Part shown: one piece after another, positions 5,396 to 42,795 of the stretch
Layout of the letters: the number at the start of each line of letters is the position of its first letter
Position numbering within the stretch: position 1 is the stretch's first letter
Source: a virus
Lineage: Duplodnaviria > Heunggongvirae > Uroviricota > Caudoviricetes
DNA length: 64,000 nt
Reading direction: 5' to 3' (one strand)
Virus record (IMG/VR): IMGVR_UViG_3300025898_000004
Location: 30,452-94,451 of that record
Position numbers and translations under genes: made by a program
The notes under the pieces: generated by a model
What the model saw: only the letters and a program-made list of their open reading frames with translations
Told to the model about the DNA's origin: nothing
The model's database searches: none

Positions 5396-5660
5396 ACTCC
5401 GGTTGCTGAAAGCCACGGATGATGTCCTCTGGACGCTCCGGGCCGTCCCACAGTTGGCACGTGCACAGAACCCCGGTCTGGTGGAGTCCTGTGCGGCCTT
5501 GACACTTCCCGGTGCCTCCGGCGTGCATTCCCCGGTAGTGGCCGCAGGTGCACGCGCTGGGGTCGCGCTGGGGGGTGCGTTGGATTTTGGACAGGCGGCC
5601 GGCGGTGAATCCAGCGATGAGTCCAGCGAGAGCAAGGATGATGTCGGTTATTGCGATCAT
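5394..5660 (-). CDS. hypothetical membrane-anchored Cys-rich protein (88 aa)
   Basis: ORF track; N-terminal hydrophobic helix; ATGA coupling with upstream gene. Confidence 0.45.
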   Translation of the reverse strand: MIAITDIILALAGLIAGFTAGRLSKIQRTPQRDPSACTCGHYRGMHAGGTGKCQGRTGLHQTGVLCTCQLWDGPERPEDIIRGFQQPE

Positions 5661-5899
5661 CAGTTGAGTTGTCCTTTGTTGTACGAGTTTTGGGCGTGGT
5701 GCGCCATGGTGCTGGCGATTCTTTTCAGCGTGGCGGAATCGCCCGTGATGCTGGTTCCTCCCTCTTTGACTTGATTGGCGAATTGTAGTGCGATGAAATA
5801 GCTAGCACACTTTTTCACGCTGACGCCATCGATAAAGAATTCGATGGTTTTGTTGGGAACGTCTGTTTCGCTGGTGACTGCCATCCGTTTCCGTGCCAC
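5660..5899 (-). CDS. hypothetical protein (79 aa); start may be GTG 5899 (leaderless) or ATG 5884
   Basis: ORF track; promoter 5906..5935 puts the transcription start at or near the start codon. Confidence 0.45.
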   Translation of the reverse strand: MARKRMAVTSETDVPNKTIEFFIDGVSVKKCASYFIALQFANQVKEGGTSITGDSATLKRIASTMAHHAQNSYNKGQLN

Positions 5900-7763: not shown

Positions 7764-8429
7764 ATGACGATGATCATGGAAGAGAGGGATCGAATGACCG
7801 AACCCACCACACCATCACACTGGACAACCGACGTGGTCGAACGCCTGGACCTCATCCGCGCCGGCCACTACACACTGCCACAAGCCGCCGAGTACATCGG
7901 CCTGTCCGAAGCCACCGTACGGGACCTGCTGTCCCGCCCGGTGATCACCGCCACACACAACATGCTGGCTCCGATCAGCCGCCCGGCCATGCGCCTCGGT
8001 GGCGAACCCATCTACACCCGCCGCCAGCTGGACGAAGTCAACACCCGACGTGCGGCCACCCGGCGCTTGCGCTCCAGTGAGCTGGACAAACTGACGTTCG
8101 AGGAAGCCGAACGGCAACACCTCAGGTCGTACGCGGAGATGGCGGAACTGTTCAAGTTCCATGAGAACACGCTCCGGAAGTGGGGTGGCGCGCACGATGA
8201 CTTCCCCGTGGCCACGGCCAGTCGGGAACATCCGGGCGGCTACCCCGGTACCCCGACAGTCGTGTTTGACGCCGTGGAAGTGCTCCGGTGGCTGATCATT
8301 CACGACAAGGTCAAGGCGGAGGATTTCGAGGTGAACGGCCGGGTGGTCGTGTGCCTCATTCCGGACGACTCCGAAGAGGACGAAGACGGGGAACTCGAAG
8401 AGATCGAACAGGAAACCCTGGTTCCCTGA
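7764..8429 (+). CDS. helix-turn-helix DNA-binding protein (MerR/excisionase-like HTH 'LPQAAEYIGLSEATVRDLLS'), acidic C-terminal tail; possible switch regulator
   Basis: ORF track; HTH pattern; ATG 7764 would be leaderless, alternative ATG 7794 has RBS 'gagaggga'. Confidence 0.6.
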   Translation: MTMIMEERDRMTEPTTPSHWTTDVVERLDLIRAGHYTLPQAAEYIGLSEATVRDLLSRPVITATHNMLAPISRPAMRLGGEPIYTRRQLDEVNTRRAATRRLRSSELDKLTFEEAERQHLRSYAEMAELFKFHENTLRKWGGAHDDFPVATASREHPGGYPGTPTVVFDAVEVLRWLIIHDKVKAEDFEVNGRVVVCLIPDDSEEDEDGELEEIEQETLVP

Positions 8430-8517
8430 TACCCCTTCCCCTTGCGGGACAAGGAGATCACAATTCGGTGTGGACGGTCGCCCAACACGGGGCGGCCCCT
8501 CCACAGTGGAGACGATC

Positions 8518-8694
8518 ATGGAAAACCCCGTCAAGGGAACCGTCACCGAGTACCACCACGCACAGGTGATGATCCAAGGTGTACACATCTACATCGGCGA
8601 AAACATGTCCCTGGTTGGACGTGACCAAATCGACATGCTTTACTTGGATGGTCCACACCAGGGTGAACATGTCACTACCTACCGGGTTCGCTGA
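8518..8694 (+). CDS. hypothetical small protein (58 aa)
   Basis: Internal ATG of ORF 8470..8694 with 'ggagacg' RBS; moderate GC3; weak. Confidence 0.3.
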   Translation: MENPVKGTVTEYHHAQVMIQGVHIYIGENMSLVGRDQIDMLYLDGPHQGEHVTTYRVR

Positions 8695-8747: not shown

Positions 8748-9527
8748 CTACCGCATGAGTGTGAACACAAACGCGCCAGCCACCACCGCCCCTGTGCCCA
8801 GCGACAAGCGACCCAGCACCAATTCCGCGCGGCTGTTCGCCTCCGTGTCGAACCGCAGGAACCTCGGCGTGCCCACCATCCGCCACACCTGGCCCCGGAT
8901 CGGCACCGGGAACCACACCGGGCATCCCTGGGTGGTCATGCAGTCCCCGATCATGTGCGTGACGCACCCGGCGGCCACGGCGACGCCGAACCACCGCGCG
9001 GTCAGCTCCGGCGGGGATCCGGCCCACAGGAACAGCGTGAGCACCCCGGCGCACCAGCCAGCCGTGAACAGTGTCAGGAACGGGTGCCGGTAGGCCCATT
9101 TGCCGGCCAGGGCGCGTACGGCGTAGGTGCCGAACACGAACAGCATGCCGCCGACGGCCCAGAGCCAGAACAGGTGGATCAGCCACCAGGTGAGCACGCC
9201 CGTGCCGGCCGCGAACAGGGCGGTGTGGGTGATGCCCCGGTGGCCGCCGTCGCGGTCGCGGTCCCGTTTCGCACGGGTGAGGGAGTAGAGCGTGCCGGAT
9301 AGGCCGTGAACGGCTTTGGACACGATGGTGGAGGCGCGGCCGAAGCTGTGTGCCACGGTGGCGTCCGGGTGATCGATGTCGGGGAACACGGCCGCGCCGA
9401 TGACGAGTCCGGTGACGGCGACGCCAAGGCTGAGCGGGAGGGGTGCGCCGGTCAGGGGTGCGCCGAAGGCGGCCAGGGTGATTCCGGCGGGTACGCCTTG
9501 GCGCGCGTGGGTTTTGCCCATGCACAT
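8748..9527 (-). CDS. membrane-bound metal-dependent hydrolase, YdjM/DUF457-like (His-rich motifs, several TM helices)
   Basis: ORF 8748..9605; ATG 9527 (MCMGK...) has RBS 'gaagaggag'; motifs 'GITHT', 'HMIGD' and TM segments resemble the LexA-regulon YdjM family (recalled). Confidence 0.55.
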   Translation of the reverse strand: MCMGKTHARQGVPAGITLAAFGAPLTGAPLPLSLGVAVTGLVIGAAVFPDIDHPDATVAHSFGRASTIVSKAVHGLSGTLYSLTRAKRDRDRDGGHRGITHTALFAAGTGVLTWWLIHLFWLWAVGGMLFVFGTYAVRALAGKWAYRHPFLTLFTAGWCAGVLTLFLWAGSPPELTARWFGVAVAAGCVTHMIGDCMTTQGCPVWFPVPIRGQVWRMVGTPRFLRFDTEANSRAELVLGRLSLGTGAVVAGAFVFTLMR

Positions 9528-9558
9528 GGTGTTGACTCCTCTTCGTGGTTGCATGACT

Positions 9559-9588
9559 ACTCTACCAAACAGTTGACCAACCAAGCAA
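9559..9588 (-). promoter_or_regulatory. promoter (TTGCTT-18-TAGAGT) for the hydrolase gene
   Basis: Reverse complement reading. Confidence 0.4.
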
Positions 9589-9601
9589 GTTAGGTTAAGG
9601 T
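9574..9601 (+). promoter_or_regulatory. promoter (TTGACC-16-TAAGGT) giving a leaderless transcript starting at ATG 9608
   Basis: Seen directly; -10 ends 7 nt before the ATG. Confidence 0.45.
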
Positions 9602-9607
9602 TCAACC

Positions 9608-10724: not shown

Positions 10725-11251
10725 CCACGACCATGGACCCGATCGCCGCTCACGTCGACTACGTACAGCGACTCTTGGCGCTCACGTCGAAGCCGGAGAC
10801 CGCCCGCGCCGTCCAGGCCGTGTTCACACACGGTCAGGACACGGCGGCCCCGGCCGCCGGTCGGCTGGCCCTGATCGGCTCCGCCGCCGCCCCGCGCGTC
10901 GCGCTGATCACCAAGGTAACCCCCACTCGCGTGCAGGTGTCCTACCTGACCGAAAGCGGCATCCGGCACGGCCGCACCATGGCCGCCTACAACTCCCACC
11001 CGATCCACCTGGACAGCTGGCCCGAAACCTACCGGGACAACGCCCGCACCGGATGGCACAAGAACCCCGAACGTCAGCTCTGGTCCACTGAAGATGACTA
11101 CGCGAACTACCACTACGAATGGGCGCTCAAGACGCAGGCCGTCTATCGCGCCGTGACACACTGCCCGTGGGTGGCGTTCGCGCCCATTCGCCACGCGTGG
11201 ATCCGCCGTCACCACCTGGCGATGATTCCCGAGAACGGAGAAACCAAGTGA
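10721..11251 (+). CDS. hypothetical protein (176 aa)
   Basis: ORF track; ATGA overlap with upstream gene. Confidence 0.55.
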   Translation: MTTTMDPIAAHVDYVQRLLALTSKPETARAVQAVFTHGQDTAAPAAGRLALIGSAAAPRVALITKVTPTRVQVSYLTESGIRHGRTMAAYNSHPIHLDSWPETYRDNARTGWHKNPERQLWSTEDDYANYHYEWALKTQAVYRAVTHCPWVAFAPIRHAWIRRHHLAMIPENGETK

Positions 11252-11631
11252 AGTTCACCGCGAATTATCAGAACGGCGGCCACGCCGAATTCGAATGGGA
11301 GGGCGACTCGGCCGACCCGGAACAGATGGACGACCTGTTGGAATCCGCGTACCGGGCGGCCCCGGGCGGTCTGTGCCATCAGTGCGCCGGGAAGTACTCC
11401 ATTTCGGAGGACACGGAGGTGTACGAGATCCGGGAAACCGACACCGGAAACAAGGTGTTCAGCGAACCGACCTGGGACGATCAGATTCGTGAATCCGCCA
11501 TTAATGCTACCAAGTTGAACGCCGAATTGGTGGCGAAGCTGGCCACGGTCGAACAGCAACGGTTCATGTTGGCGAACCGCCTTCGCAAGGCCGGGTTCAT
11601 GGTGGACCCGGACACCTGGGCCGTGTCCTGA
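11248..11631 (+). CDS. hypothetical protein (127 aa, GTG start)
   Basis: GTG with RBS 'ggagaaacc' in ORF 11119..11631; GTGA overlap with upstream stop. Confidence 0.5.
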   Translation: MKFTANYQNGGHAEFEWEGDSADPEQMDDLLESAYRAAPGGLCHQCAGKYSISEDTEVYEIRETDTGNKVFSEPTWDDQIRESAINATKLNAELVAKLATVEQQRFMLANRLRKAGFMVDPDTWAVS

Positions 11632-11990
11632 TGTCCCGCTGTCCCGGACGGCCGGGACACGGCGGGACACCGGACATCCCCGGGACACTAGACGTCGCAC
11701 CGGGACACCGTGTCCGGTGTCCCGGTCCTGTCCCGGGACACTCGGCGGGACATGTCCCGGCCGTTGTCCCGGCGAGCCCGGGACAAGGTGTCCCGCTGTC
11801 CCGGGACGTGTCCCGCCCGGCCCGGGACACTCGGCGGGACAACCCGGGACAGTGTCCCGGGACGTGTCCCGCCCGGCCCGGGACACTGTGTCCCGAGTGT
11901 CCCGGGCTCTTCACTGGGACAGTTGTCCCAGCTCGTCCCGCTATCGTGTCCCGCGTGTCCGGTCGCGCGGCCCCGGCGGAGCGCCGTCCA
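11632..11990. repeat. dense array (about 30 copies, both orientations) of the 7-8 bp motif TGTCCCGG/CCGGGACA, with longer direct repeats (e.g. cccgggacgtgtcccgcccggcccgggacact at 11797 and 11857)
   Basis: Seen directly; immediately 3' of the FtsK/TraB-like gene; candidate clt/TRS-like, parS-like or iteron array. Confidence 0.7.
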
Positions 11991-12054
11991 GTTCGGGAAG
12001 AACCCCGCCAGACACAGCACGGCCCCACCGATCCATGCCGGTGGGGCCGTGTCG

Positions 12055-12140
12055 TTTGTCCACTGGACGTGTGATCGTCCAGTGAGGGGGCTGGGGGAGT
12101 GTAACTACAGGTCAGAGCCTTGGAATCGTCCAGTGGACAA
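12055..12140. repeat. 13-bp inverted repeat tgtccactggacg ... cgtccagtggaca plus direct repeats of atcgtccagtg
   Basis: Seen directly between the repeat array and the stop of the translocase gene. Confidence 0.55.
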
Positions 12141-12151
12141 GGAATGGACGA

Positions 12152-14185
12152 TTACCCAGCGTTGACAAGCTCCTCGTTTGGCAACGTCCAGTTACCGCGC
12201 TTGGTGGCCCGTGCTCCCATCTCCGTCAACTTCGCGTACGTCCACGATCGTGCCCGCGTGGCCGATTTCGCCAGGTCCCGGACATGCGCCCCGTCCGGCC
12301 CGGCCGCCCGCAGGGCGGACACCAGCGCCTCAATCGCGTCCGACTCGGACAGCTTCGGCGGATCCAACTCCGCCATCAGCGCGTCCCGGGCCGCCTGCGC
12401 CATGTCCTGCTGTCCCGCCGTCAATGACTCCTGGTGCCGGCGCACCAGCTCCGCCAGCGGGACATCCGGCCCGTCCATCCACGTCGGTTCCGGGACATCC
12501 TGTCCCGCCTGTCCCACGTCATCCTGTCCCACGTTGTCCCGCCCTTGTCCCGCGTTGTCCCGGCTGTCCCGGGACATGTCCCGGGTGTCCGGGACAGTGT
12601 CCTGGTGTCCCGGGACAGGGTTGCCGTCATCGTCGAGCGGGACAACATGCGGCCGGTCCGCGTACAGCTGGGACACCGCTGTGGCCGCCGCCGACGACGT
12701 CTCGTCCAGTTCGCACGTGCGCCCTTGACGCAATTTGACGAGAGTGGACACGGTGGAGTCCGACACGTATTGAATACGAATCGGCATCCGATCGATCGTT
12801 TCGGCGTCCTGGTAGTAGCACGTTCCCGGCCGCGATTGCGGAATGAGGTTCGCGCCCACCTTCCCGTCCCGGCGTGTGCCGAACACGAAGTACTCCCCGT
12901 CTTCGCCTTGCATCCGGAAACAGAACCGCTGATCCAATTGTTCACGAACAAGGTTCGAGCCGTACGCCAACAGCGTCGGATACTGGGTGGCCTCCACGAT
13001 CTCGACACCGAGGGCGCGGCCCTTCTGAATGATCCGCTCCAACATTTCTAGTTGCTTGCGGTTCATCGCGCCGTTGAACGAGTGGCACTCGTCCACGACA
13101 ACCGTCAACACCGGGAATTCCGGTGTCATCGGCCAGCGGCGAACTTTCAGGACTTCCGCACAATACTTCGCGCGGGCGTCCACCACCGCTTCGAGCGCTT
13201 CGAGCATTTCCAGCGATTCGTCAAAGGTGGTGACGCACCAGTCCATGGCGTTGCGCCACGGTCCCAGTTCCATTCCGCCTTTGAGGTCGATTCCCCACAC
13301 CACGGCATTGCGGCAACACACCCGCGTGCCCACGATGATGTTGACCAGACCAGACTTGCCGGAGCCCTTCGCGCCGGCGAGCATCACGGACCGGGAGCCG
13401 TACTCCTTACTGTCTGTGAGGGTCATGGTCTTCAGAACCCCGTCCTCCCGGTAACCGAGAGTGATCGGGTCGCAGGCGTCCAGCTCCCGGACGTACCACT
13501 CCCCGTTGATCTCCTCGGCGGGAATCTCCCAGTTGATCCCTTTCTCATGCGGGTCCGTCACGAACGCCTTGAACGTGACCGAATTCGAGTCCCGGCCGTT
13601 CCTTTCCATGCGGAGCGTGCCAGTCGGCAACGCCAATGCGCCTTCGATACGCTCCCGCTTCTCCAGGATCTCCGCCACTGTGTAGTCCCCGGCGGGCCAC
13701 ACCAGACGGCCCTCGAAATTGCCGCCACCGTGCGCCCGAATAGCGACCGTGCGCACGGTGTCTATGCGCAACTTCCGTGCCAGCGCCGGCCACCGCTCCA
13801 CCGTTTCCGTGAGGGTGACCCGTGTCCGTCGCCGATTGTTCCGCCACCACGGGATACCCATGGCCAGGCCAGCGCCGGCCGTGATTGGCGCGGTCCACGA
13901 AAAGTGCGACCAGCCAAGTTCATGCAACGTGAGCACGACCGAACTGGACGCGGCCAACACGCTGAACAGGTACAGCTTGTTCCGGTCGTCGCCGCCGTAC
14001 GCGGAGATCCACGACCCGGCCGCCGTCGCGGCCCCGGCGACCCCGAGGGCCACCGGGGCAAACGGCGCGTACTGCGAGATCTCACCCAGTGCGACAGTGC
14101 CGGCGGTGACGAACATAGGCGTCAACTCCGACCGGCGACGGCGCATGGTGCCGAACACTGCTCCCGTCACCTTTGTGACGCTCAT
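12152..14185 (-). CDS. FtsK/SpoIIIE/TraB-like membrane DNA translocase (N-terminal TM helices, Walker A GAKGSGKS, Walker B VVVDECH, C-terminal winged-helix-like domain; repetitive RD/GQ-rich linker encoded by the TGTCCCG repeats)
   Basis: ORF track (677 aa); motif inspection; RBS 'aaggaaagggg' before ATG. Confidence 0.75.
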   Translation of the reverse strand: MSVTKVTGAVFGTMRRRRSELTPMFVTAGTVALGEISQYAPFAPVALGVAGAATAAGSWISAYGGDDRNKLYLFSVLAASSSVVLTLHELGWSHFSWTAPITAGAGLAMGIPWWRNNRRRTRVTLTETVERWPALARKLRIDTVRTVAIRAHGGGNFEGRLVWPAGDYTVAEILEKRERIEGALALPTGTLRMERNGRDSNSVTFKAFVTDPHEKGINWEIPAEEINGEWYVRELDACDPITLGYREDGVLKTMTLTDSKEYGSRSVMLAGAKGSGKSGLVNIIVGTRVCCRNAVVWGIDLKGGMELGPWRNAMDWCVTTFDESLEMLEALEAVVDARAKYCAEVLKVRRWPMTPEFPVLTVVVDECHSFNGAMNRKQLEMLERIIQKGRALGVEIVEATQYPTLLAYGSNLVREQLDQRFCFRMQGEDGEYFVFGTRRDGKVGANLIPQSRPGTCYYQDAETIDRMPIRIQYVSDSTVSTLVKLRQGRTCELDETSSAAATAVSQLYADRPHVVPLDDDGNPVPGHQDTVPDTRDMSRDSRDNAGQGRDNVGQDDVGQAGQDVPEPTWMDGPDVPLAELVRRHQESLTAGQQDMAQAARDALMAELDPPKLSESDAIEALVSALRAAGPDGAHVRDLAKSATRARSWTYAKLTEMGARATKRGNWTLPNEELVNAG

Positions 14186-14200
14186 GTCCGTCCCCTTTCC

Positions 14201-15148
14201 TTACGCGTTCGGTACGGCAATTCCGCTGCGGTACAGCGACAGCAACGGCCCATACACGGTTTCGATGGTGTTCACAATCGCGGTCCACTGGGAGGCTTCC
14301 GCGTCGGCCAAATCAACCAACGGCTTCAGCCCGTGAACCACCAGCGGATCCATGTTCAGGCGACCAATCAAGGTCTTCTGAAGCTCGTGCAACGCGTCCG
14401 CCTTGTCGCTGGCCGCCGCCGCCAGTCCGGCGACGAGATCCAGAATTTCCTGCGTGCTTCGGGGGATCGCTTCGCCTACCCCGGTCCATGCTCGTGCGAC
14501 GGCGTGCGCCGTGCTTGTGCTGTCGGACATGACTGCACGTCCCCTTTCTTCGATCCTGCGTCGGTGGCGTTCCACGTAGGTGGATGCCTTGTGGTGCCCG
14601 GCGGTGGTTGGTGTGGCCCGGTGCCGGCCGGCGGGTGCGCCGGGTGTGGGCCGGACCTTCACCTTCCCCCTGTGGCGGGATTTGTAGCTGTGGTGCAACG
14701 TGGCTGGAGTGTGCGGTTTCGGTTCCCGTTTCTCCCCGTTGTGTTTCTCGATGTAATGCAAATTCAGGGCCATGGTGCTGGTGAACGTCTCGCCGCAAAT
14801 GCAGTGAACGGCGTGTTTGACGCGCCATTCGCCGCGTTTACGTTCTATCTTCGGCACCTTGTGGGGTGCCCATTTTGGCGCGCGGCTTTTCTGGACGTGT
14901 CGGCGTACATGGGGTGCGACGGCGCGGGTTCCTTCGATCGCGCCGACGGTGGCCCCGGCCGCCGCGTAGCCGGCGATTTTCACTGCGCCCAACGTGATGT
15001 GCAGCACTGGCCGCAACAGCTTGTGTTTGCGGGGAACACGGTCCGCCAGTCCGGACCGGTACCACTTGGTTTTTCGGACGTGACTGGCGAACCGCTTTCC
15101 CATGGTGGTTGACGTGTCGGTGGTGCGTTGCGCCTTGCCTTTCGACAT
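14201..15148 (-). CDS. basic protein with C2H2-like zinc finger (CICGETFTSTMALNLHYIEKH), 315 aa
   Basis: ORF track; RBS 'ggagaggag' before ATG; operonic with the translocase. Confidence 0.55.
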   Translation of the reverse strand: MSKGKAQRTTDTSTTMGKRFASHVRKTKWYRSGLADRVPRKHKLLRPVLHITLGAVKIAGYAAAGATVGAIEGTRAVAPHVRRHVQKSRAPKWAPHKVPKIERKRGEWRVKHAVHCICGETFTSTMALNLHYIEKHNGEKREPKPHTPATLHHSYKSRHRGKVKVRPTPGAPAGRHRATPTTAGHHKASTYVERHRRRIEERGRAVMSDSTSTAHAVARAWTGVGEAIPRSTQEILDLVAGLAAAASDKADALHELQKTLIGRLNMDPLVVHGLKPLVDLADAEASQWTAIVNTIETVYGPLLSLYRSGIAVPNA

Positions 15149-15151
15149 CGC

Positions 15152-15931
15152 TTACTCCTCTCCGACGGCTCGCTGTTCGAGTCCGGCGCGGATGCGGCCC
15201 AGCGTCTTGCGGGTGGTGTCTTTCTTGGCGTCCAGGTGAACGCCAACGTGGGTGTGCACCGTGGCCGGCGTGGCGTCCGGGTTGTCGTCCAGGTACCGGG
15301 TGATGGCGGCCCGGAGGTCCATGTCCGGGGTGAGCCAGTCCGGCGCGGGCGCGGTCATCTCGGTGACGCTGGCCAACGGTTCCGGGGCGGCCGGCGACTC
15401 TGGTGCCGGCACGGGGGCTGGAATCTGAGCCGGAGTGGCCTTCGGCTTCGGCGCTGGTGTGGCGGTCGCGGTCTTCGTGGCGCGTGCCTTGCGGATGGTG
15501 GTGAGGCCACGGCGCATGACCAGCATGTGAATGACGGCCGCCAGCGTTGCCGGCGGAATCGCGCCGACCAGCAGCACGACACCCCAGACGGGGGCGAGTT
15601 TCTCGACGTTGAGGAACAGGTCCAGTCCGTTGGCTCCCAGGGACAGGCTGATGGCGGTGAGTGCCAGTCGCCGGGAGTAGCGGCGGGTGTCGTTGTCGGT
15701 CGTGCGGGACAGCCAGATTCGGGTAGAGGTGTATGCCACCGCGTCCAAACAGACGGGCCATACCCAGGACAGCCATCCGTTGAATCCGCACATGTCAGCG
15801 AGGTCACGTGAGGAGTTGAACGACAGCACGGCCGCGCCCCCCACGATGAGGCTGGACATGGCGTGAATGTCCAGCTCAGAGAACCAGCGTGAGCCTTTTT
15901 CGGGCAGGCTGGTTCGACCTTCCGCGTTCAC
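15152..15931 (-). CDS. DUF2637-like membrane protein (Spd-like, as found beside TraB in actinomycete conjugative elements), C-terminal Pro/Ala-rich linker
   Basis: ORF track; GTG 15931 with AAGGAG 6 nt upstream; hydrophobic N-terminal half with 'WLSWVWPVCLDAVAY'. Confidence 0.5.
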   Translation of the reverse strand: MNAEGRTSLPEKGSRWFSELDIHAMSSLIVGGAAVLSFNSSRDLADMCGFNGWLSWVWPVCLDAVAYTSTRIWLSRTTDNDTRRYSRRLALTAISLSLGANGLDLFLNVEKLAPVWGVVLLVGAIPPATLAAVIHMLVMRRGLTTIRKARATKTATATPAPKPKATPAQIPAPVPAPESPAAPEPLASVTEMTAPAPDWLTPDMDLRAAITRYLDDNPDATPATVHTHVGVHLDAKKDTTRKTLGRIRAGLEQRAVGEE

Positions 15932-16041
15932 TGTCAACTCCTTTGCTCCGTTTGCGGGTAGACAACCTCCTTGGTTATGGGAGAGGATATGCCCGCGCGG
16001 GGGAGTCCCGCAAGACAGGTTGGATTTACCAGGGAGTGGAA

Positions 16042-16242
16042 ATGAAGGCCGACCAGCTGGCCGCCCTGTTGAAGAGGGCTATTAGCGAAGGCAAATATTC
16101 TTCGGGGGACAAGTTGCCCAGCGAATCCCAGCTCAGCCGCACACATGGGATGTCCGTACACACCGTGCGGGAGGCCCTGTCTCAGCTGGTGGGCCAGAAT
16201 CTCGTGGTGAAGCGCAAGGCGTTCGGCACGTACGTTAAGTGA
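16042..16242 (+). CDS. GntR-family winged-HTH domain protein (67 aa; 'LPSESQLSRTHGMSVHTVREALSQL'), divergent from the translocase operon
   Basis: HTH signature read from ORF 15889..16242; ATG 16042 with 'agggag' RBS. Confidence 0.55.
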   Translation: MKADQLAALLKRAISEGKYSSGDKLPSESQLSRTHGMSVHTVREALSQLVGQNLVVKRKAFGTYVK

Positions 16243-16254
16243 CCGTTGGCGCGA

Positions 16255-16294
16255 CAATACCCCCGACCGGGTGAACTTCGGTCGGGGGTATTGT
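16255..16294. terminator. 15-bp hairpin acaataccccgaccg/cggtcgggggtattgt (bidirectional)
   Basis: Seen directly between convergent genes. Confidence 0.65.
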
Positions 16295-16302
16295 CATCGC
16301 AG

Positions 16303-16506
16303 TCACTCGACGAAGAGGCGACCCTTCTTGGCGTCGTAGCCGACGACCTTCTTTTTGAGAAGGCACGTGTTGATCTTGATCTTCGTTCCCAGGTTGGGCC
16401 GCGCGTGCGGCCACTCGCCCAGCCACTTGCCATTCTCGCCGTTCTGCCACACGCTCCAATATTCGCGTTCGTTGGCGTCGGCTCCGGCGGTCGGGAAGTT
16501 GGACAT
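16303..16506 (-). CDS. hypothetical protein (67 aa)
   Basis: ORF track; 'aaccaaggagg' RBS. Confidence 0.5.
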   Translation of the reverse strand: MSNFPTAGADANEREYWSVWQNGENGKWLGEWPHARPNLGTKIKINTCLLKKKVVGYDAKKGRLFVE

Positions 16507-16543
16507 TCATCCTCCTTGGTTGACGACACCGATACTACAGGAG

Positions 16544-16578
16544 TTGACATCCCGTGGCAAGTCGAGTCCGATACACTT
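16544..16578 (+). promoter_or_regulatory. promoter with TTGACA in 'GGAGTTGACATCCCGTG' motif
   Basis: ttgaca 16544-16549; -10 candidates tccgat or tacact. Confidence 0.4.
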
Positions 16579-16585
16579 AGTGATC

Positions 16586-16765
16586 ATGCGCGGACACTAC
16601 GAAATCACCCTCGAAGAGGGAACCGACGGCCTGTGGCGGGCCTACCGCCTCATTGCCTCACCGCCGTTCACCACCGGAACCGGCACGACGCTCCGTGACG
16701 CCTTGGACGAGTTGGCCATCCAGCTCGAACGGGAACGCCAGGAACACGACAACGCCCCCCACTGA
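16586..16765 (+). CDS. small protein (59 aa), possibly HicB-like antitoxin fold
   Basis: ATG 16586 in ORF 16355..16765; 'YEITLEEGTDGLWRAYRL...TGTTLRDALDEL' pattern; weak. Confidence 0.35.
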   Translation: MRGHYEITLEEGTDGLWRAYRLIASPPFTTGTGTTLRDALDELAIQLERERQEHDNAPH

Positions 16766-16854
16766 CGTGAGGGGCGTTGTCCACCAAGGAGTCCCGTCTA
16801 CCAGAAACCGGAAGGCTGGGAGTACCCACAACTGTAGGTGATCGGTAACCGTTT

Positions 16855-17805
16855 GTGCAACATGCACGGATCGTGATGCGAAACGGTCGCAGAACGGGCA
16901 ATCATCAGTGCAGACTGGCAACTGTGAACACCGTACACCTGTGCGCGGCCGGATGTGGTCGCCAAGCATCCGATGCTGAACTGTGCGGCGCATTCCACGG
17001 TGGTGTCTGGACTGGGTGCCTGGGTGACATCCTCACCGACCTGCGCACCGTGTGTGAACAGGCTGTCGACGAGCATGGAATGCCCGTCCGAAACCTCGCG
17101 GACGAACTGACCGTCACCTTCACCCGCTCGAACCGCACCACGGCCGCCCGTGTCGGCGGCCGTTCCGCCGGCACTCCGTTGCCGTGGCATGAGGCCGCCG
17201 CTGATGCCACGTTCCGTCTGCGTTCAGCGCTAGGAACGTGGGCTTCGCGTCTTCACCTGGCGTATTCGCCGCGCCTTCCGGACCCGACCGACCCGACTGG
17301 TTACTTTCAGCCACCGCCCGATTACACCGCTGATGTGCGGTCGCTGGCCGCGTGGCTTCTGCGCCATCCGCTGTGGATCGCACAACACCCAGAAGCCGGG
17401 GACCTCCACGCCACCGTGACCGGTGCCGTGCGGGACGCGTGGCGTGTTGTCGACCGCGCTCCCGACCGTTGGTACGCCGGCCCGTGCTCCGTGAAGGACT
17501 GCGCCGGACACGTGTTCGGGGATCCCGACGCGCCAGCCGGCTCGTGCACCGTGTGCCGCGCCACATACGACATGGCGGCCCGGCGCGCGTTCCTGTTCGA
17601 ACGCGCCAGGGACTACGTGCTCAGCGCGGCGGAGTTGTCCCGGGCGCTCCCTGTGCTGTTCGGCGTGACCGTGAACCGGAAAACGGTTTCCACGTGGGCG
17701 AACCGGGGCCTGTTGCCGGTGGCGGACGTGGACGACCGGACCGGGACACGCTTGTACCGGCTAGGTGACGTGGAGAACCTTGTCCTGCTGAAGATTGGCG
17801 CGTAG
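16855..17805 (+). CDS. hypothetical protein (316 aa), Cys-rich N-terminus, C-terminal HTH-like segment
   Basis: ORF track; start uncertain. Confidence 0.45.
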   Translation: MQHARIVMRNGRRTGNHQCRLATVNTVHLCAAGCGRQASDAELCGAFHGGVWTGCLGDILTDLRTVCEQAVDEHGMPVRNLADELTVTFTRSNRTTAARVGGRSAGTPLPWHEAAADATFRLRSALGTWASRLHLAYSPRLPDPTDPTGYFQPPPDYTADVRSLAAWLLRHPLWIAQHPEAGDLHATVTGAVRDAWRVVDRAPDRWYAGPCSVKDCAGHVFGDPDAPAGSCTVCRATYDMAARRAFLFERARDYVLSAAELSRALPVLFGVTVNRKTVSTWANRGLLPVADVDDRTGTRLYRLGDVENLVLLKIGA

Positions 17806-18271: not shown

Positions 18272-18850
18272 ATGGCCGGTGAATTGTGCGGCGGTGAACT
18301 CCGGGGCAAAGACGACGACGGTAACCGTCGAATCGGCACTTGCCGCCGGCCCGCCGGATGGGGAACCAATCACGTTGGTGTCGGCCGGTGCAAACTCCAC
18401 TTCGGTAACACCCGCGAATCGAACAACAAGGCCGTTGAGGTCAAGTTTGAACGCGCGGTAAAAACCGCTATCGGCAAACTCGAAATCACGCCGATTATGG
18501 ATCCGCTCACCGAAATGGCAAACCTGGCCGGTGAAGTCGTCGCCTGGAAAGACGCCATCGCCAACCACGTGTCGTTCCTCGAAGACATCCGCTACGACGG
18601 CGAGAAGTCCGGGGAACAGATCCGAGGCGAAATCGTCGTGTTCGAACGCGCCCTTGACCGGTGCAACACGGTGCTAGCCACAATGGCAAAACTGAACATC
18701 GACGAACGCCTTGCCCAGGTGTCGGAAATGCAGGCCACAATGGTGGCGGACGCCCTGTCGGCCGTGCTCCGCGAGATGGGCTTGGACCTGACTCAACAGC
18801 GGGAGGCGAAGACCCGTGTTGCGGAAAAGCTTCGCCTTGTCGCTGGCTGA
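18272..18850 (+). CDS. terminase small subunit candidate (N-terminal Cys cluster, helical C-terminus)
   Basis: Position immediately upstream of and overlapping TerL; RBS 'cccaaggaggagaacatc'. Confidence 0.55.
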   Translation: MAGELCGGELRGKDDDGNRRIGTCRRPAGWGTNHVGVGRCKLHFGNTRESNNKAVEVKFERAVKTAIGKLEITPIMDPLTEMANLAGEVVAWKDAIANHVSFLEDIRYDGEKSGEQIRGEIVVFERALDRCNTVLATMAKLNIDERLAQVSEMQATMVADALSAVLREMGLDLTQQREAKTRVAEKLRLVAG

Positions 18851-20360
18851 AAGGCTTGATCCGCCCGACCCGGAAGTGTTCCAGAAACTCGGATACGTTC
18901 CGACACCGCGACAGCAAGAATTCCACGAGGCAACAGAATTCGCGGTGCTTTACGGCGGGGCAGTCGGTGGGGGAAAAACCAAAGCGCTTGTGGCTGAGGG
19001 GATCAAGCAATGCGTTTTGCATCCCGGTTTGCGCGTGGGCGCTTTCCGACGCTCCTACCCCGAACTCAAGGAATCCATGCTGGCCGAATTGGCGCAAATG
19101 GATTTCGCCAAGGCTGTTGGTGCGTCGTGGAACGGCACGGAATACGACCTGAAGTTTCCCAACGGGTCGATCATCATGTTCCGGTATGCCGAAAACGTGC
19201 AGGACGCCACGAAACGCCAGGGTGGACAGTACCAACTCCTGTTGTTCGATGAGCGCACTCTCACCCCACCCGAAGTGTGCGTGTTCCTGGAATCCCGGCT
19301 CCGGTCCGGTCGCGCCGACGTTCCCGTGATCGGGGTCCGCTCCGGAACGAACCCGGGCGGAGTCGGACACGGCGACGTCAAAATGAAATACATCGACGCC
19401 ACCGACAACGGGAAGAAAATCGTTCTCGACGCCCGTAGGCGCACCGTGCGGTTCATTCCGTCGAAGCTGTCGGACAACCCGCACGTCAACGCCGAGTACG
19501 CCGACGACCTTCGGGGCCTCCCCGAACACCTTCGCCGCGCCTTCCTGGACGGCGACTGGAACATGTTTGCCGGTCAGGTGTTCTCAGAGTGGGGCACCGG
19601 GGAGCGATTCACCGTGCGCCCGATGTCGATCCCGGACACATGGAAGCGCTACACGGGCGTCGACTGGGGCTACACCGCGCCGTGGGCCGTGGTGTGGGGC
19701 GCGGTGGACGAAGACGGCCGTGTGTGGATCTACCGGGAGCTGTACGCCCGCCAGGTTGGCGAAGCCGAACAGGCCCGCCAGATCCTTGCTGCCGAAGCCG
19801 GAGAGCCCATCTGCGAGCGGTTCGCCGACGACGCCATGTGGGCGACGCGGGGCGACGCGAAGCCGATCGCGGACGTGTACGCGGACAACGGTGTGTACCT
19901 GTCCAAGGCCGGCAAGGGCGGGGGGTCCCGCGTCAACGGGTGGCAGCGCATCCACAGCTACCTCACCGACGCCCCAGCGTGCCCGCACCACCGCGCGATG
20001 GGCTGGAAGACCTGCCCGAACCTGCACGTGTTCGACACGTGCGCGAACTTTCTGCGCACTATTCCGGCGCTGCCGCACGCTAAGACCGGTGACCCGGAAG
20101 ATGTCGACACCAACGCGGATGACCACATTGCGGACGCGTTGCGCTACATGCTGGTAAACATGGGTTCCGGACCGGAATTCATGATGGTGGACTCCGCTGT
20201 GAGTGCCGTGGTCGACTCGATCCCGGCCGCTCAACCAATCGGGCCGTTCGCTTACATCCCGCGTGATGATGACAATCCGTACACATACGATGATTACGGC
20301 GGGGAGGTGAACATGCCATGGGGTTTTGGGAGCGGGTTTTCGGCCGGGAATCGATGGTAA
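18816..20360 (+). CDS. terminase large subunit (Walker A 'GGAVGGGKT', nuclease C-terminus)
   Basis: ORF track 514 aa; GTG start with RBS 'gggagg'; TerL motifs. Confidence 0.85.
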   Translation: MLRKSFALSLAERLDPPDPEVFQKLGYVPTPRQQEFHEATEFAVLYGGAVGGGKTKALVAEGIKQCVLHPGLRVGAFRRSYPELKESMLAELAQMDFAKAVGASWNGTEYDLKFPNGSIIMFRYAENVQDATKRQGGQYQLLLFDERTLTPPEVCVFLESRLRSGRADVPVIGVRSGTNPGGVGHGDVKMKYIDATDNGKKIVLDARRRTVRFIPSKLSDNPHVNAEYADDLRGLPEHLRRAFLDGDWNMFAGQVFSEWGTGERFTVRPMSIPDTWKRYTGVDWGYTAPWAVVWGAVDEDGRVWIYRELYARQVGEAEQARQILAAEAGEPICERFADDAMWATRGDAKPIADVYADNGVYLSKAGKGGGSRVNGWQRIHSYLTDAPACPHHRAMGWKTCPNLHVFDTCANFLRTIPALPHAKTGDPEDVDTNADDHIADALRYMLVNMGSGPEFMMVDSAVSAVVDSIPAAQPIGPFAYIPRDDDNPYTYDDYGGEVNMPWGFGSGFSAGNRW

Positions 20361-21916
20361 TCGAGGAAGCGGCCAAGAGTAGCGATAATTTTGATCCCAC
20401 GAAGACGCCAACTCGCGCCGGATACGAATACGGTATTCCGTCCGGTGGTATCAACGAATACACCCAGGGCATCGGATCCGCCACCCAAACTGACCGCCGG
20501 TCCATGCTTCAACAGCTCTATGAGGCGTACCTGGCGTGTCCGTGGAGTTGGGCGTGTGTGAACGCCGTCGCGCGCACCATCACCGCCGGTGGTCTGATGA
20601 CGGACTGGGACACCGACACTGGGGAAGGCGACCAGGAAGCCCCTGACAAGCCGGACAACGTGTTGGCCCTGGAACGGCTGCTCAAGTACTGCAACCCGCA
20701 AGAGGACATGCGTCAGCTGTTGCGGGGCATCATCTGTGACTTGTTGGTGTTCGGTGACGCCTACATTGAAGTCGTGTGGGTCGCCGGGATCCCGGTGTCC
20801 ATGTACAGCCTGGACGCCCCATCCGTGTTTCCCATCGCGAACGAGCATGGTGAAGTCAGCAAGTATATTCAGCTCACCGATTTCGGCCAGCGCGCCGAAT
20901 TCAAGCCAAACGAGATCATTCATATCTCTTTGGACTCGCCGCGTTCCGGCGTGTTCGGCGTGTCTCCGACGCAAGCCGGTTTGTTGCCGATCACGGCGTG
21001 GCTGTTCACGGCCGCCACGCTCAAGGAGACGTTCCGCAAGGGCAATCCGGCGAACATTCATGTGGACATGCCGCAGGGCATGAGCCAGCCGGAAATGAAC
21101 CGGTGGGTCGGGCAATACATGCAACGCAATGTCGGCCCTCGCAACATCGGTTTCCCGCTGACGACCAAGGGTGGCGCGGCGGTCAAGGAGTTGCAGCAGA
21201 ACAAGGTGGAAGAGTATTTGCACACGCTCGACCAGAAGCGTGATGAAATCCTCGCCACCTATGGTGTGCCGCCAGCCGAAGCGGGTGTTATCGAATCGGG
21301 GAACCTGGGTGGCGGTACGGGTGAATCTCAGAGGAAAACGTTCCTTGTCAACACCTGTCAGCCTATCGCGGAACTGGTTCTGGAGAAGCTTAACTTCTAT
21401 ATCGTTCAGCGTGGCTTCGGTATCGAGGGCTGGCACCTGAAGTTCGGCGAAATCGACATGCGTGACTCCAAGACGATCGAGGACATCCGGGACACGCGCC
21501 TCCGGAACGGATCCTGGACGCTGGACCGTTACCGCGCCGACATCGGAGAACCATCCGTGGACGGTGGAGACACCGCCATCCTGGTCGATCGCCAAAACCT
21601 GGTGTTGTGGCGGGACATGGTCGCCTACTCCCGTGCCGGAGTCGCCGCGAAGCTCAAGGGCTCCGCGCTCGAACCGATGGAGCCGGGCGAGGATGACGAG
21701 CCGTTGGCGTTGGAGAAGCCGGAGAAGGAGCCACCGCCGATGCTGCCGCCGATCCCGAACGGGGTCGGAATGCCGGCACCGCCGGGCGCACCACCAGCCG
21801 GCCCGGCCGGGCGCACACCACCTGGTCAACGTCCACCGCGCGAGACGTGGCAACAGCGTTACCGGACGCGGTTGCGGGAAGCGCTGAAAGAACTCCCCGA
21901 TGACTTCGCCGAGTGA
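20318..21916 (+). CDS. portal protein
   Basis: 532-aa ORF directly after TerL; typical size and position. Confidence 0.8.
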   Translation: MGFWERVFGRESMVIEEAAKSSDNFDPTKTPTRAGYEYGIPSGGINEYTQGIGSATQTDRRSMLQQLYEAYLACPWSWACVNAVARTITAGGLMTDWDTDTGEGDQEAPDKPDNVLALERLLKYCNPQEDMRQLLRGIICDLLVFGDAYIEVVWVAGIPVSMYSLDAPSVFPIANEHGEVSKYIQLTDFGQRAEFKPNEIIHISLDSPRSGVFGVSPTQAGLLPITAWLFTAATLKETFRKGNPANIHVDMPQGMSQPEMNRWVGQYMQRNVGPRNIGFPLTTKGGAAVKELQQNKVEEYLHTLDQKRDEILATYGVPPAEAGVIESGNLGGGTGESQRKTFLVNTCQPIAELVLEKLNFYIVQRGFGIEGWHLKFGEIDMRDSKTIEDIRDTRLRNGSWTLDRYRADIGEPSVDGGDTAILVDRQNLVLWRDMVAYSRAGVAAKLKGSALEPMEPGEDDEPLALEKPEKEPPPMLPPIPNGVGMPAPPGAPPAGPAGRTPPGQRPPRETWQQRYRTRLREALKELPDDFAE

Positions 21917-22079
21917 ACCGGAGCCGTCGGAACACCCAGCCTCGGGCGTTCCGACGGCCCCAGAACCTGACGACATCCCCGATGGGCCGCTGACTGCCGA
22001 CAAGGTGAAGGCGCTCATTCCGAAGGTCGTGGACTAGGGGGCTGGTGATCGTGAACAGCACTCAGAACGGATAACCACG

Positions 22080-33219: not shown

Positions 33220-36200
33220 GTGGCCGAACAGATCAGCGATCTCTATGTGCTGCTCCGCGCCGACACCGGACAATTGATCGGCGGCTTCACCGAAGCGTCC
33301 GTATCCGGCGAAGAGATGGCCGCCAAGGTCGCCGCTGTCACCGCCGACGTTGAAGCCGAAATCGCACGCATGAACGCGTCGCTGATCTCGGTTGGCGCGG
33401 CATCCGACGAAATGGCGTTGCAGACCACCGCCGACTTCGAAGCCATGTCGGTCAAGACGAAGACACTGGCCCTGGACTTCGAGGCCATGGCAGCCAAGGC
33501 CGAAGCGTCCACAGTGGCCATCGGCACGGCGACCGCGAAAGCCGAAGAGGACGCCGCGAAAACGGCCGCCTCGAACGCGGCGACCATGGCGAAGGTCAGC
33601 GCGTTGGTCGGCGCGGCCGGCGCGCTGGTCATCGCCGGCACAGCGAAGATGTCAGGCGATTTCGAGTCCGCCACCCAACGCCTGGTCAGCTCCGCCGGAG
33701 AGTCCGCAGACAAGCTCCAGATGGTCCGTGACGGGCTTCTCCAGATGGCCGGACAGGTTGGAGACAGCTCCCTGGACCTCGCGCACGCCGGCTACTTCAT
33801 CGAGTCCATGGGCTACCACGCTCAGGCTGGCCTGGACGCGCTGAAGGCCGCCGCCGAGGGCGCGAAGCTGGAAAACGCGGACTTGAACACCGTGGCTAAA
33901 GGCCTGACAGCCACGATGAACGACTACGGCCCGAAAGTCGGGGACGCGGCCACGGTCATGTCCAAGCTGGTGACGGCCGTCGGTGACGCCGGCACCACGT
34001 TCGAGGACTTCACGGGCGCACTGCACAACGTGCTTCCGCTGGCGTCAGCCATGAATGTCCCGTTCAACGACATTGCAGGCGCGTTGGCGGAGATGACCGC
34101 GCATGGCATGAGTGCCGACCAGGCGTCTCAGAATCTGTCGAACGCGTTGCGGGAGATGCAAAAGCCGTCATCGGACATGACGAGTTACTTGGCGCAGATT
34201 GGAATCACAGCGTCCGATCTGACGGACAAGCTTGCCACGCGAGGGCTCACAGGCACGCTGAACGACATCAGCCAAGCGATCATGAACAAGATGGGGCCGT
34301 CCGGGAAGGTCCTGATCTCCGCGTTCAATGAGTCCAAGCAAGCCTCGCAAGACTTGCAAGTGATGCTGCAAAACATGCCGAAGTCGTTGCAGGCAACGGC
34401 AACAGCGTTCCTCAATGGACAGATCACGGTCAACGACTGGCGGCAGGCGATTAAGGCGTTGCCGACCGACCAGCAAGGCATGGCAACCCAGTTCGCCGCG
34501 CTGGCGAACAAGGCCGACGGCTTCAACAACATTTTGAAGCAAGGTGGCCCAGCCGCCCAGTCCTACAGCCAGGCCATGCAACGCGCCACGGGCAACGCCA
34601 CGTCGCTGAACGTCGCCCTGATGCTGACGGGCCAGAACACGGCGGCCACGAACAAGGCCGTTAACGACATTGCCGCATCCACAAAAGACGCGGATGGAAG
34701 CGTCAAGGGATGGGCTGACATCCAGTCTACGTTCAACCAGAAGCTGGATGAGGCGAAAGCCGCTCTCGGTGCGGTCGCGATTCAGCTGGGCGCGGTGTTC
34801 CTGCCAATTCTGTCGAAGGTTCTCGGAGCGTTGGCGGACTCGGCACATTGGCTGTCGGAGCACCCGACGTTGATCAAGGCCGTGGCTATTGCGATCGGTA
34901 TTCTCACGGTGGCCGCCTTGGCGTTCGCCGCCGCCATGGTGATTGTGAATATCGCCATGTTGCCAGAGATTGGCGTCATGCTGGCGGTCACGGCGGTGAT
35001 TCTCGCTGTTATCGCGGTGATCACCATCCTGACTATCATCGTGGTTGAGATCGTCAATCACTGGCAGCAGATTTCCGATTTCTTCGTGGATTTGTGGAAC
35101 ACGGTCAAGAATGCGTTCGAAACGGCGATCGACTGGATCGGCGACAAGATCGGCGAATTCATTGACTGGGTGAAGCAGATTCCTCAGAAGGTATGGGACG
35201 GAATCAAGGCGCTGGGAAGCAAACTGGCTGACATCGCCAAAAGCGCCTGGGACGGTTTCACCAAGTTCATTTCTGACGGAATCAACAACACTATCACGCT
35301 GCTCACCCATTTTCCCGAAAAGGCCGGATTTGCGATCGGCTACCTGATCGGAACATTGGCGAAAAAGGGCAAAGAAGCGTGGGACGCGTTCACCGGCGCT
35401 ATCGCCAACGCCTGGAACAGCACCGTGCAATGGTTCAACGACCTACCCAACAACGTGTCCAACCTGATGTCCGACGCGAAAAACTGGCTGACCGGCCCCG
35501 GAAAAAACATGGTCCTGGGCTGGCTGGACGCCATTGGCCAAAAAGCCGAGGACGTGTGGACATGGATGAAATCGGTGCCACACAAGGTCGTCAGCTTCTT
35601 TGACGACGCCGGAGATTGGCTTGTCCAAAAGGGCAAGGACATCCTCCACGGCGCGGAAGACGGCATCAACAACGGATGGGAATCCGTCAAAGCGTGGTGG
35701 AGCGCGACGTTCCCCGACGGGATCATGCGATTTTTCCGCAATGCCGGAAACTGGCTGTACCAAACCGGCCGCGACATCCTGACCGGCTTGGTGAATGGTA
35801 TCAGCTCCGCTATCGGCTGGGTCTGGGACACCGTGACCGGGTTCATCTCCAACCTGATTGCCGGCGTCAAAGCGGGATTCGACTCACACTCGCCATCCCG
35901 CGTGTTCCACGCTATCGGTGAAGACCTGATGCACGGACTCGGAAACGGAATCAGCGCCAAAGCCGGAACCGTGATCGACCTCGCCAAGAAGACGACCAGC
36001 CAAATCGTCGGCGCGGCCAACATCGGTGACATGACCATGACCGGTAACTTCACCGGCCCCAGCGGGCTCGCTACCGGAATCAACCGGGGCGGGGCCGGTG
36101 CGCAACAAGTCACCATCATCGGCCCTATCACCGTGCAAGGAAACATCCGCACCACACAGCAGTTCGTTCGCGAACTCCAACAGGAACTGCTCCGATACGG

Positions 36201-42402: not shown

Positions 42403-42795
42403 TCAGACGGTCGCCAGTTCCGGTTCCGGCGCGTGCGCTTCCTGGAACCGGGCCAGCAGCTCCGCCGGGATCCGGCCACGCTCGCTGACCTTCTCGCCCT
42501 GGCTGCGCGCCCACTCGCGGACGGCCTGGTTCTGCTCCCGGCTGAGGTTCGTGCCGGTTGCGCGCTTCTCGCCGGACCGGGTGGCCCGCGCGGTTCCGGT
42601 GCTCTTTGGAGTCCTCGGGGTCTTCACGCGCTGTGCGCTCTCCACGAACGCTTCCAGCCGTCCGCGCAGTTCGGCTGCGTTGGCCTTCGTCAGGTCGATC
42701 GTGTACTCGATCCCGTCCAGACCGAAGTAAACCGATTCGTCGGCCGGCTCTCCGGTGATGTCGTCGACCAGTTCCACGACTGTCTTGCTCGCCAT
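42403..42795 (-). CDS. lsr2: Lsr2-like nucleoid-associated protein (N-terminal 'TVVELVDDITGEPADESVYFGLDGIEYTIDL', C-terminal 'RGRIPAELLARFQEA' DNA-binding motif)
   Basis: Recalled close similarity to mycobacterial Lsr2 in both domains; ATG 42795 (MASKTV) in ORF 42403..42831. Confidence 0.8.
   Translation of the reverse strand: MASKTVVELVDDITGEPADESVYFGLDGIEYTIDLTKANAAELRGRLEAFVESAQRVKTPRTPKSTGTARATRSGEKRATGTNLSREQNQAVREWARSQGEKVSERGRIPAELLARFQEAHAPEPELATV

Follow-up and report, generated by a model that had tools for sequence, protein, structure and literature searches.

The 64-kb window analysed here (positions 30,452 to 94,451 of the IMG/VR record IMGVR_UViG_3300025898_000004) is part of a large tailed-phage genome, with genes for terminase, portal and tape measure protein and 16 tRNAs. 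Between positions 11632 and 16242 it carries a compact cassette, in which the gene for a TraB-like double-stranded DNA (dsDNA) translocase of the FtsK/SpoIIIE family is followed by a dense array of short repeats. The genes of the cassette form a minus-strand operon (12152-15937) that encodes a DUF2637 membrane protein of 261 amino acids (aa) (15152..15937, Pfam E 5e-13), a basic C2H2-type zinc-finger protein of 315 aa (14201..15148) and the 677-aa translocase (12152..14185), which was characterised by profile searches, hhalign and AlphaFold2/Foldseek. A GntR-family regulator of 66 aa, consisting only of the helix-turn-helix (HTH) domain (16042..16242, plus strand, Pfam E 3.6e-17), is transcribed divergently, and the promoter/operator region between it and the operon (15938..16041) contains one array-motif core at most. 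The repeats are found in two clusters, one in the intergenic region 3' of the translocase gene (11632..11952) and the other inside this gene (12411..12675). An earlier note on this DNA had described the same operon and divergent regulator, and its coordinates for the translocase, zinc-finger and GntR genes are exact. It had also recognised the DUF2637 family correctly but placed the start of this first operon gene at 15931, whereas the actual start is a TTG at 15937.

Several lines of evidence relate the translocase to the TraB proteins of Streptomyces plasmids. The NCBIfam profile of the plasmid transfer protein TraB (NF041214) matches residues 39-657 on profile positions 32-616 of 639 (E 1.3e-29), and matches were also obtained with a PHROG FtsK/SpoIIIE-like profile (E 2e-21) and a PDB FtsK profile (E 1.5e-4). 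The Walker A (GAKGSGKS) and Walker B (VVVDE) boxes, already pointed out in the earlier note, are invariant throughout an alignment of 26 homologues. When the profile of these homologues was compared by hhalign with the annotated TraB of a Streptomyces acidiscabies plasmid, the two aligned over 594 columns (99.6%, E 9e-25), collinearly from the N-terminal hydrophobic helices through the C-terminal 'R..SW' helix. BLASTP identity between the two proteins is 22%. In addition, a protein from a metagenomic database is 100% identical to the translocase over 654 aa (97% of the query), starting at the second ATG.

The AlphaFold2 model of the translocase (mean predicted local distance difference test, pLDDT, of 78) comprises four N-terminal helices (residues ~24-113), a beta-rich domain, a RecA-like motor (~265-510), a disordered linker (525-576), for which the pLDDT is below 50 and conservation at the protein level is poor, and, at the C-terminus, a small helical domain that contains a beta hairpin, the winged-helix domain (~610-670). 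In Foldseek searches with this model FtsK motors rank first (6t8o, E 1.2e-17, target template modelling score 0.70), ahead of the conjugative coupling protein TcpA and of EccC/EssC. When modelled by itself (pLDDT 79), the C-terminal domain superposes on winged helices with a root-mean-square deviation of 2.5-3.7 Å over ~60 residues, and a PDB profile search with it gave one weak match to a winged helix-turn-helix (wHTH), in agreement with the winged-helix-like fold that had been suspected from the letters. As judged from its sequence, the translocase is TraB/FtsK-like, with a predicted TraB layout from end to end.

The intergenic array is 321 bp long and contains 27 GGGACA cores, 25 of which are present as CGGGACA, with the consensus C(C/G)GGGACA. 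The cores are spaced by 6-23 bp and occur in mixed orientation (15 and 13, counting the 5-nt core CGGGA between 11620 and 11960), and the array contains a 56-bp higher-order duplication. The motif reaches a density of ~82 per kb here, whereas the remainder of the locus has 4.6 per kb. The array is flanked on one side by the stop codon of a convergent plus-strand gene (11631) and on the other by a strong hairpin (12018-12051). The estimate of about 30 copies in roughly 360 bp given in the earlier note holds when the 6-7-nt core is counted, but the exact 8-mer TGTCCCGG gives 16 copies and the span is ~321 bp. This 8-mer is present 32 times in the window, compared with 5.6 ± 2.2 in shuffled sequences, none of which (0 of 100) reaches 32; 16 of the copies are in 11640-11905 and eight in 12490-12617, and the eight found elsewhere in the 64 kb correspond to background (~5.6 expected).

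The second cluster comprises 17 GGGACA cores within the DNA coding for the disordered linker of the translocase (12411..12675), so that the two clusters together hold 44 of the 85 cores of the whole 64 kb. The presence of the motif in this stretch had been noticed before, and the count bears it out. Both orientations of the motif are present here, spread over two or three codon phases, so it is not the trace of a single peptide repeat, and selection in the linker appears to act on the DNA. Palindromes of the form TGTCCCGGGACA are frequent in the window and its closest relatives.

Between the translocase stop codon (12152) and the array lie two further elements. One is the GC-rich hairpin already mentioned (12018..12051, minus strand), with a 14-bp stem, in a region (11990-12151) that folds with a minimum free energy of -70.8 kcal/mol (z -3.8). 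It is kept in L001, the relative with 89% translocase identity, and is probably a bidirectional terminator without a U-tail. The other is a perfect 14-nt inverted repeat, TTGTCCACTGGACG / CGTCCAGTGGACAA (12056-12069 and 12127-12140), located directly 3' of the translocase stop with its arms 57 nt apart, and kept in both L001 and L002. The palindromic core of this repeat, GTCCACTGGAC, has the GT...AC form.

Nearly all homologues of the translocase are metagenomic. An exhaustive search of 1.84 billion cluster representatives gave 83 clusters at E <= 1e-30. The Pfam family PF01580 (FtsK_SpoIIIE) has precomputed matches in about half of the listed homologues. Fourteen loci with full-length translocases, at 32-100% identity including the window (32-89% for the others), were examined; those listed are the window, L001, L002, L130-L132, L004-L009, L059, L138 and L139. 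Wherever the flank is available and similarity is detectable, the gene order is constant, with the GntR gene followed divergently by the DUF2637, zinc-finger and translocase genes, and in the five loci with gene calls (contigs of 35-130 kb) a portal gene is found 0.2 to 3 kb past the GntR end of the cassette. Among bacterial genomes, the nearest matches are to Actinophytocola, Pseudonocardiales, Actinoplanes, Longispora and Frankia, all of them filamentous actinomycetes.

The two repeat clusters are conserved together with the genes, and the survey of synteny proposed in the earlier note thus returned both a constant gene order and a constant pair of clusters in the 14 loci. Wherever the available sequence suffices, a short motif reaches 10-20 times the background density at two places, the linker-coding DNA (about -560 to -230 relative to the stop codon) and a downstream array, usually at +200 to +850 and more distant in L001, L009 and L007. 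The motif variant changes by lineage, yet it is identical in both clusters of one genome. It is CGGGACA in the window (14 copies in the linker and 25 in the array), L001 (12 and 20) and L002 (18 and 32); CGGGAAC in L005, L008 and L138 (6 and 16 in L008); CGAGACG in L004 (4 and 8); and CGAGAC in L139 (5 and 12). CGGGAC(T/N) is found in L130-L132 and L059, and GCGGGA(A/G) in L006, L007 and L009, with counts that vary by locus. In a distant clade (L004, L005, L007, L009, L059 and L138) most linker copies have the sense orientation and most array copies the antisense one, as in L138 (7 of 9 in the linker, 12 of 13 in the array), so that the two clusters face each other across the wHTH-coding segment; in the clade of the window the orientation is mixed. 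The putative recognition helix of the translocase reads A-T-R..SW wherever the motif continues as ...GAC (A-N-R in L131, C-T-R in L139), and A-G-R..SW wherever it continues as ...GA(A/G), the T and G states probably corresponding to two clades.

A further observation concerns L001, where a gene for a 167-aa protein (8140-8643, plus strand) separates the translocase stop (8022) from the hairpin and from the array, which is at 8749-9045; it is absent from the window and from L002. The protein combines an N-terminal HNH_3 homing endonuclease (E 1.7e-11) with 63 C-terminal residues that share 38% identity with the winged helix of the translocase itself (E 5e-13). The residence at this site of a homing nuclease with this wHTH is circumstantial evidence that the domain recognises DNA here.

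The other products of the cassette were also followed in the relatives. The zinc-finger protein has a net charge of about +30 and no match to a named family, and seven homologues all keep its Cys/His pattern (C-x1-2-C-x12-H-x4-H), in line with its description as a basic zinc-finger protein. For the GntR companion the family assignment stands, but in the window the gene is only an HTH stub. In L001 too the protein is limited to the HTH, with no effector domain, and a full-length GntR+UTRA protein (240-257 aa; L130:5291-6013, L131:5117-5881, L132:2475-3248) occupies the same place in relatives whose translocase is 44-47% identical. No UTRA remnant is detectable downstream of the GntR gene of the window. 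The divergent promoter regions of the relatives contain their own palindromes, for instance TTGTTCGAACAA twice in L130 and an inverted repeat with 9-bp arms in L131, and a scan of 11200-16400 for sigma-70 promoters gave no match. The DUF2637 protein shows no similarity to SpdB of pIJ101, nor does pIJ101 SpdB match DUF2637, so the label 'Spd-like' given to it earlier reflects its gene neighbourhood only. In L139 a small NUDIX gene (5446-5775, minus strand) lies downstream of the GntR gene on the same strand, a pair that recalls the korSA-pif arrangement of pSAM2, an actinomycete integrative and conjugative element (AICE). L138 carries a gene of the DpdA family (21197-22004), involved in 7-deazaguanine DNA modification, and some members of this phage clade may therefore modify their own DNA.

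The same k-mer procedure was applied to two Streptomyces plasmids with an annotated traB, and it found repeats at the matching position after the gene in both. The first has eight CCGCACA repeats at +16 to +135 after the traB stop, and the second eight CTGACA repeats, nearly all within ~130 bp past the stop. CCGCACA is the published clt repeat of the pJV1 type (PMC3583192). The plasmids examined, including pIJ101, have a divergent GntR gene, and two of them also a DUF2637 gene shortly downstream of traB, in the spd region; the statement that GntR and DUF2637 genes accompany traB, with clt behind it, thus describes real Streptomyces plasmids.

In Streptomyces conjugative plasmids TraB hexamers assemble at clt, reading 8-bp TraB recognition sequences (TRS) through a C-terminal wHTH, and dsDNA is transferred (PMC4170104, PMC4447253, PMC3583192, PMC3429521); the regulator TraR is of the GntR type (PMC4447253). 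The phage cassette resembles the TraB systems of pSVH1, pJV1, pIJ101 and pWTY27 in the FtsK-like motor, the N-terminal hydrophobic helices, the linker and the winged helix with its 'R..(S/P)W' helix, as well as in the repeats of 6-9 bp at or after the 3' end of the gene (PMC3583192, PMC4170104), the divergent GntR gene and the nearby DUF2637 gene. It differs in several respects. The phage translocase is only 22-26% identical to plasmid TraB, and its replicon is a ~94-kb tailed phage. The DUF2637 and zinc-finger genes precede the translocase gene, whereas the DUF2637 gene of the plasmids follows traB, and no traA or spdA/spdB homologues were identified in the phage module. Its repeats amount to 27 + 17 copies in two clusters, one of them intracoding, and in both orientations, compared with ~8 copies in 130 bp in the plasmids. 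The TRS of pSVH1 would be GACCCGGA, the sequence quoted in the earlier note.

AICEs such as pSAM2, which are comparable to the phage cassette, use an FtsK-family Tra translocase with clt, a GntR regulator (KorSA) and Spd proteins (PMC3429521, PMC3218068), and an acquired AICE module had been offered earlier as an alternative origin. We found no integrase, excisionase or RepSA-type gene among the window open reading frames (ORFs) examined, and the module is fixed beside the portal and terminase genes. An acquired or passenger AICE is therefore disfavoured, both by the lack of an integrase or Rep gene among these ORFs and by the fixed position of the module in 14 diverged phage genomes.

Another comparison is with the plasmid-phages pZL12 (phage ZL12) and pFP4, in which one replicon has virion genes and a conjugal locus, and which both conjugate and form infective particles (PMC4170104, PMC3583192). 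The window likewise combines virion genes with a tra-like locus, but no ParAB or RepA was found in its 64 kb, and the ParAB and integrase/recombinase of ZL12 were not seen among the scanned window ORFs. The window translocase has no match in the ZL12 record at E <= 1e-5, and no clt-like array of ZL12 is reported in the literature searched. FtsK-like translocases have been reported from actinophages without a function (PMC11536984, bioRxiv 10.1101/2024.02.16.580700, PMC10117723). Those of Streptomyces phage Gilgamesh and Thermobifida phage P1312 are, like that of the window, phage-borne FtsK-family motors, but the FtsK-like proteins of cultured actinophages are 26% identical over 47% of the window translocase, and in Gilgamesh the gene has neither DUF2637 nor GntR neighbours and no comparable repeat array. 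No phage-encoded translocase with a cognate repeat array of its own was reported in the literature searched.

The association of pump gene and repeats described above is real, non-random and conserved, and it is seen in homology and domain architecture, in the anatomy and conservation of the repeats, and in the way the two clusters vary together from lineage to lineage. In our view, its best explanation, to which we give slightly better than even credence, is that the cassette is a dsDNA translocation module of the TraB/clt type, native to a clade of large actinophages, with the intergenic array, together with the linker cluster, as its proposed clt/TRS-like loading site. By analogy with TraR/KorA, the GntR-family repressor would control the divergent operon of DUF2637 protein, zinc-finger protein and translocase. 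The translocase would probably form a membrane-associated hexamer of the FtsK type, and its C-terminal winged helix would read C(C/G)GGGACA. The two motif clusters, linker-coding and 3' intergenic, which flank the DNA coding for this winged helix, would both belong to a clt-like loading site that marks the phage genome as substrate. The motor would then pump phage dsDNA through a pore, which the DUF2637 protein probably helps to form, across a septal cross-wall or between hyphae, and phage genomes would reach neighbouring compartments of the filamentous host without virions. We infer the binding of the motif by the wHTH, the membrane location, the direction of transport and the biological purpose from these homologies, and as purpose the spread of phage DNA through the mycelium seems to us preferable to segregation into spores or genome internalisation. 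A bolder version, which we put forward only tentatively and with the balance somewhat against it, is that lytic-looking actinophages push naked genomes through septa or hyphal contacts by means of a conjugation-derived TraB/clt machine, in which the bipartite, lineage-specific array would serve as a self-tag that excludes competitor DNA.

A number of observations weigh against a TraB/clt-type transfer module. The NF041214 score of the translocase is 103 bits, far below the equivalog cut-off of 800, which makes the protein a distant TraB homologue and not an equivalog. The profile check against FtsK/TraB suggested in the earlier note was likewise divided, as the TraB, PHROG and PDB FtsK profiles match but PF01580 gives no match at E <= 0.01, and the only Pfam matches are sub-threshold ones to AAA_10 and Metal_resist. 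The N-terminal helices are modestly hydrophobic (Kyte-Doolittle 0.9-1.4), so membrane insertion is not secure and is suggested by homology. For the C-terminal domain, Foldseek returned generic winged helices only (MarR, MntR, ScpB, Z-alpha; E 0.03-0.3), and the FtsK gamma domain is absent among the top 50 structural matches; these results support a winged-helix fold but not a specific relation to FtsK gamma. The correlation between recognition helix and motif variant is confounded by phylogeny and therefore only suggestive. The array is three to four times the size of plasmid clt loci and has its motif in both orientations, and a linker-coding cluster is absent in both plasmids checked; clt loci can reach into the 3' end of tra, as in pWTY27 (PMC3583192). 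A near-identity DNA search of INPHARED with 11000-17000 gave no match, so no cultured relative was found. Moreover, the phage looks lytic, as it has 16 tRNAs and a lysin and neither an integrase nor ParAB was found among the ORFs examined, and a transfer function would thus need a rationale beyond plasmid biology. Finally, the zinc-finger protein of the same operon could bind the repeats instead of the winged helix.

This last point leads to the explanation that the repeats are bound by another protein, most likely the basic C2H2 zinc-finger protein, with a translocase that is not sequence-specific and an array that is centromere-, origin- or pac-like. We consider this unlikely, even if the zinc-finger protein is kept in the operon and is strongly basic (+30). 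Dense short-repeat arrays are also found at partition sites, iteron origins and the pac sites bound by TerS, and the distance between the cassette and the terminase and portal genes is a few kb. The array, however, always follows the translocase gene and not the terminase gene, a second cluster is found inside the translocase gene, and the two flank the wHTH-coding segment. No ParA/ParB or Rep gene was found nearby among the ORFs scanned. The HNH-wHTH fusion of L001 at this very site also speaks for the winged helix as binder, as does the fact that plasmid TraB with a homologous C-terminal helix binds such repeats (PMC4170104, PMC3583192).

Equally improbable in our estimation is a SpoIIIE-like role in segregation, in which the motor pumps or holds phage DNA across sporulation or vegetative septa, so that genomes are trapped in spores or daughter compartments, in a carrier state or for vertical transmission. 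In its favour, the motor belongs to the FtsK/SpoIIIE type, filamentous, sporulating actinomycetes hold the nearest relatives among bacterial genomes, and phage ftsK, parB and ssgA have been listed as possible manipulators of host development (PMC10117723). On the other hand, the closest characterised homologue of the translocase is the conjugative TraB and not a chromosomal FtsK, and its companions, the divergent GntR and DUF2637 genes, are typical of transfer and spread operons. Chromosomal FtsK and SpoIIIE share the motor fold with the phage protein, and both recognise 8-bp sites, the FtsK orienting polar sequences (KOPS) and the SpoIIIE recognition sequences (SRS), through a C-terminal winged helix. 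KOPS and SRS are, however, dispersed over the chromosome and polar, whereas the phage motif is packed at one locus as in clt. A dispersed KOPS-like signal was also looked for in its own right and rejected, as there is no motif excess outside the two clusters.

Spread through the mycelium was also weighed against genome internalisation, in which the cassette and array would be the first part to enter the cell, and the membrane translocase, made early, would load onto the array and draw in the remainder of the ~94-kb genome, analogous to the two-step transfer of phage T5. The fixed position of the cassette close to the packaging genes means that it may lie near a genome end, and the opposite polarity of the clusters in the distant relatives would suit directional loading. 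We nevertheless regard internalisation as very unlikely, since there is no precedent among TraB relatives, the motif orientation in the clade of the window is mixed, and control by a repressor suggests conditional and not immediate-early use.

Finally, that the repeats are coding sequence for a Pro/Gly/Arg-rich protein, or an operator of the GntR protein, is largely refuted, and we give it almost no credence. Several open frames do run over the array (e.g. a 147-aa ORF at 11631-12074, plus strand), but open frames are expected in a GC-rich repeat without stop codons, and the ORF over the array has no family match. The repeats do not fall inside a conserved gene, a case that the earlier note had raised beforehand: which frames stay open differs from one locus to the next, and an alignment of the arrays from the window, L001 and L002 contains indels whose lengths (10, 14 and 34 nt among others) are not multiples of three. 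As for an operator, the GT...AC form of the palindrome TGTCCCGGGACA is typical of GntR sites, but the GntR/DUF2637 promoter regions hold no more than a single motif copy (0-1), and the relatives have their own palindromes there.

The remainder of the window gives the context of the proposed TraB/clt-type module. The genes for the terminase large subunit (18816-20360) and portal (20318-21916) lie beyond the GntR gene, that for the tape measure protein at 33220-36252, and a GH25 lysin gene is also present within the window; the minus strand from 43 to 58 kb encodes helicases, a primase/polymerase-like protein and a RecB-type exonuclease. Among the window ORFs scanned, which span 64 kb of the ~94-kb record and include part of the small ORFs, neither an integrase nor ParAB nor a plasmid Rep was found. 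On the other side of the cassette, 1 to 3 kb beyond the array, is a gene for a YdjM-family inner-membrane protein (8748-9605, minus strand), which is kept in four relatives (L130:13073-13834, L131:10910-11692, L132:10598-11380, L138:13238-14095) and may be part of the same functional neighbourhood. The replication-side arm also contains genes for an Lsr2-like nucleoid-associated protein with both domains present (42403-42831, minus strand) and an SPFH/Band 7 membrane protein (53896-54798, minus strand). The tRNA cluster (60830-63962, minus strand) consists of 16 genes (Cys, Leu x3, Tyr, Glu x2, Arg x3, His, Ser x2, Gly, Asn, Met) and directly adjoins a gene for a 634-aa TROVE (Ro60-like) + VWA protein (58690-60594, minus strand). 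The usual partners of Ro60 proteins are Y-RNA-like small RNAs; an Rfam scan at the gathering threshold, which included no search aimed at a Y-RNA-like RNA for the TROVE protein, returned tRNAs only.

FtsK-like genes are often annotated in actinophages, and published proposals for their role extend from replication to the manipulation of host development. This family of phage proteins is now tied to a cis site that varies by lineage and to the GntR and DUF2637 companions of conjugative Streptomyces plasmids, which turns a vague annotation into a testable mechanism, namely which DNA the pump recognises, and where. The pairs of motif and winged helix in the 14 lineages also form a natural series on the reading of 7-8-bp sites. 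The conservation of pump and array in related phages suggests that these phages may move DNA between host cells without virus particles. If true, this would constitute a second, cell-to-cell route of transmission for phages in multicellular hosts, and the boundary between phages and conjugative elements would be blurred beyond the two known plasmid-phages.

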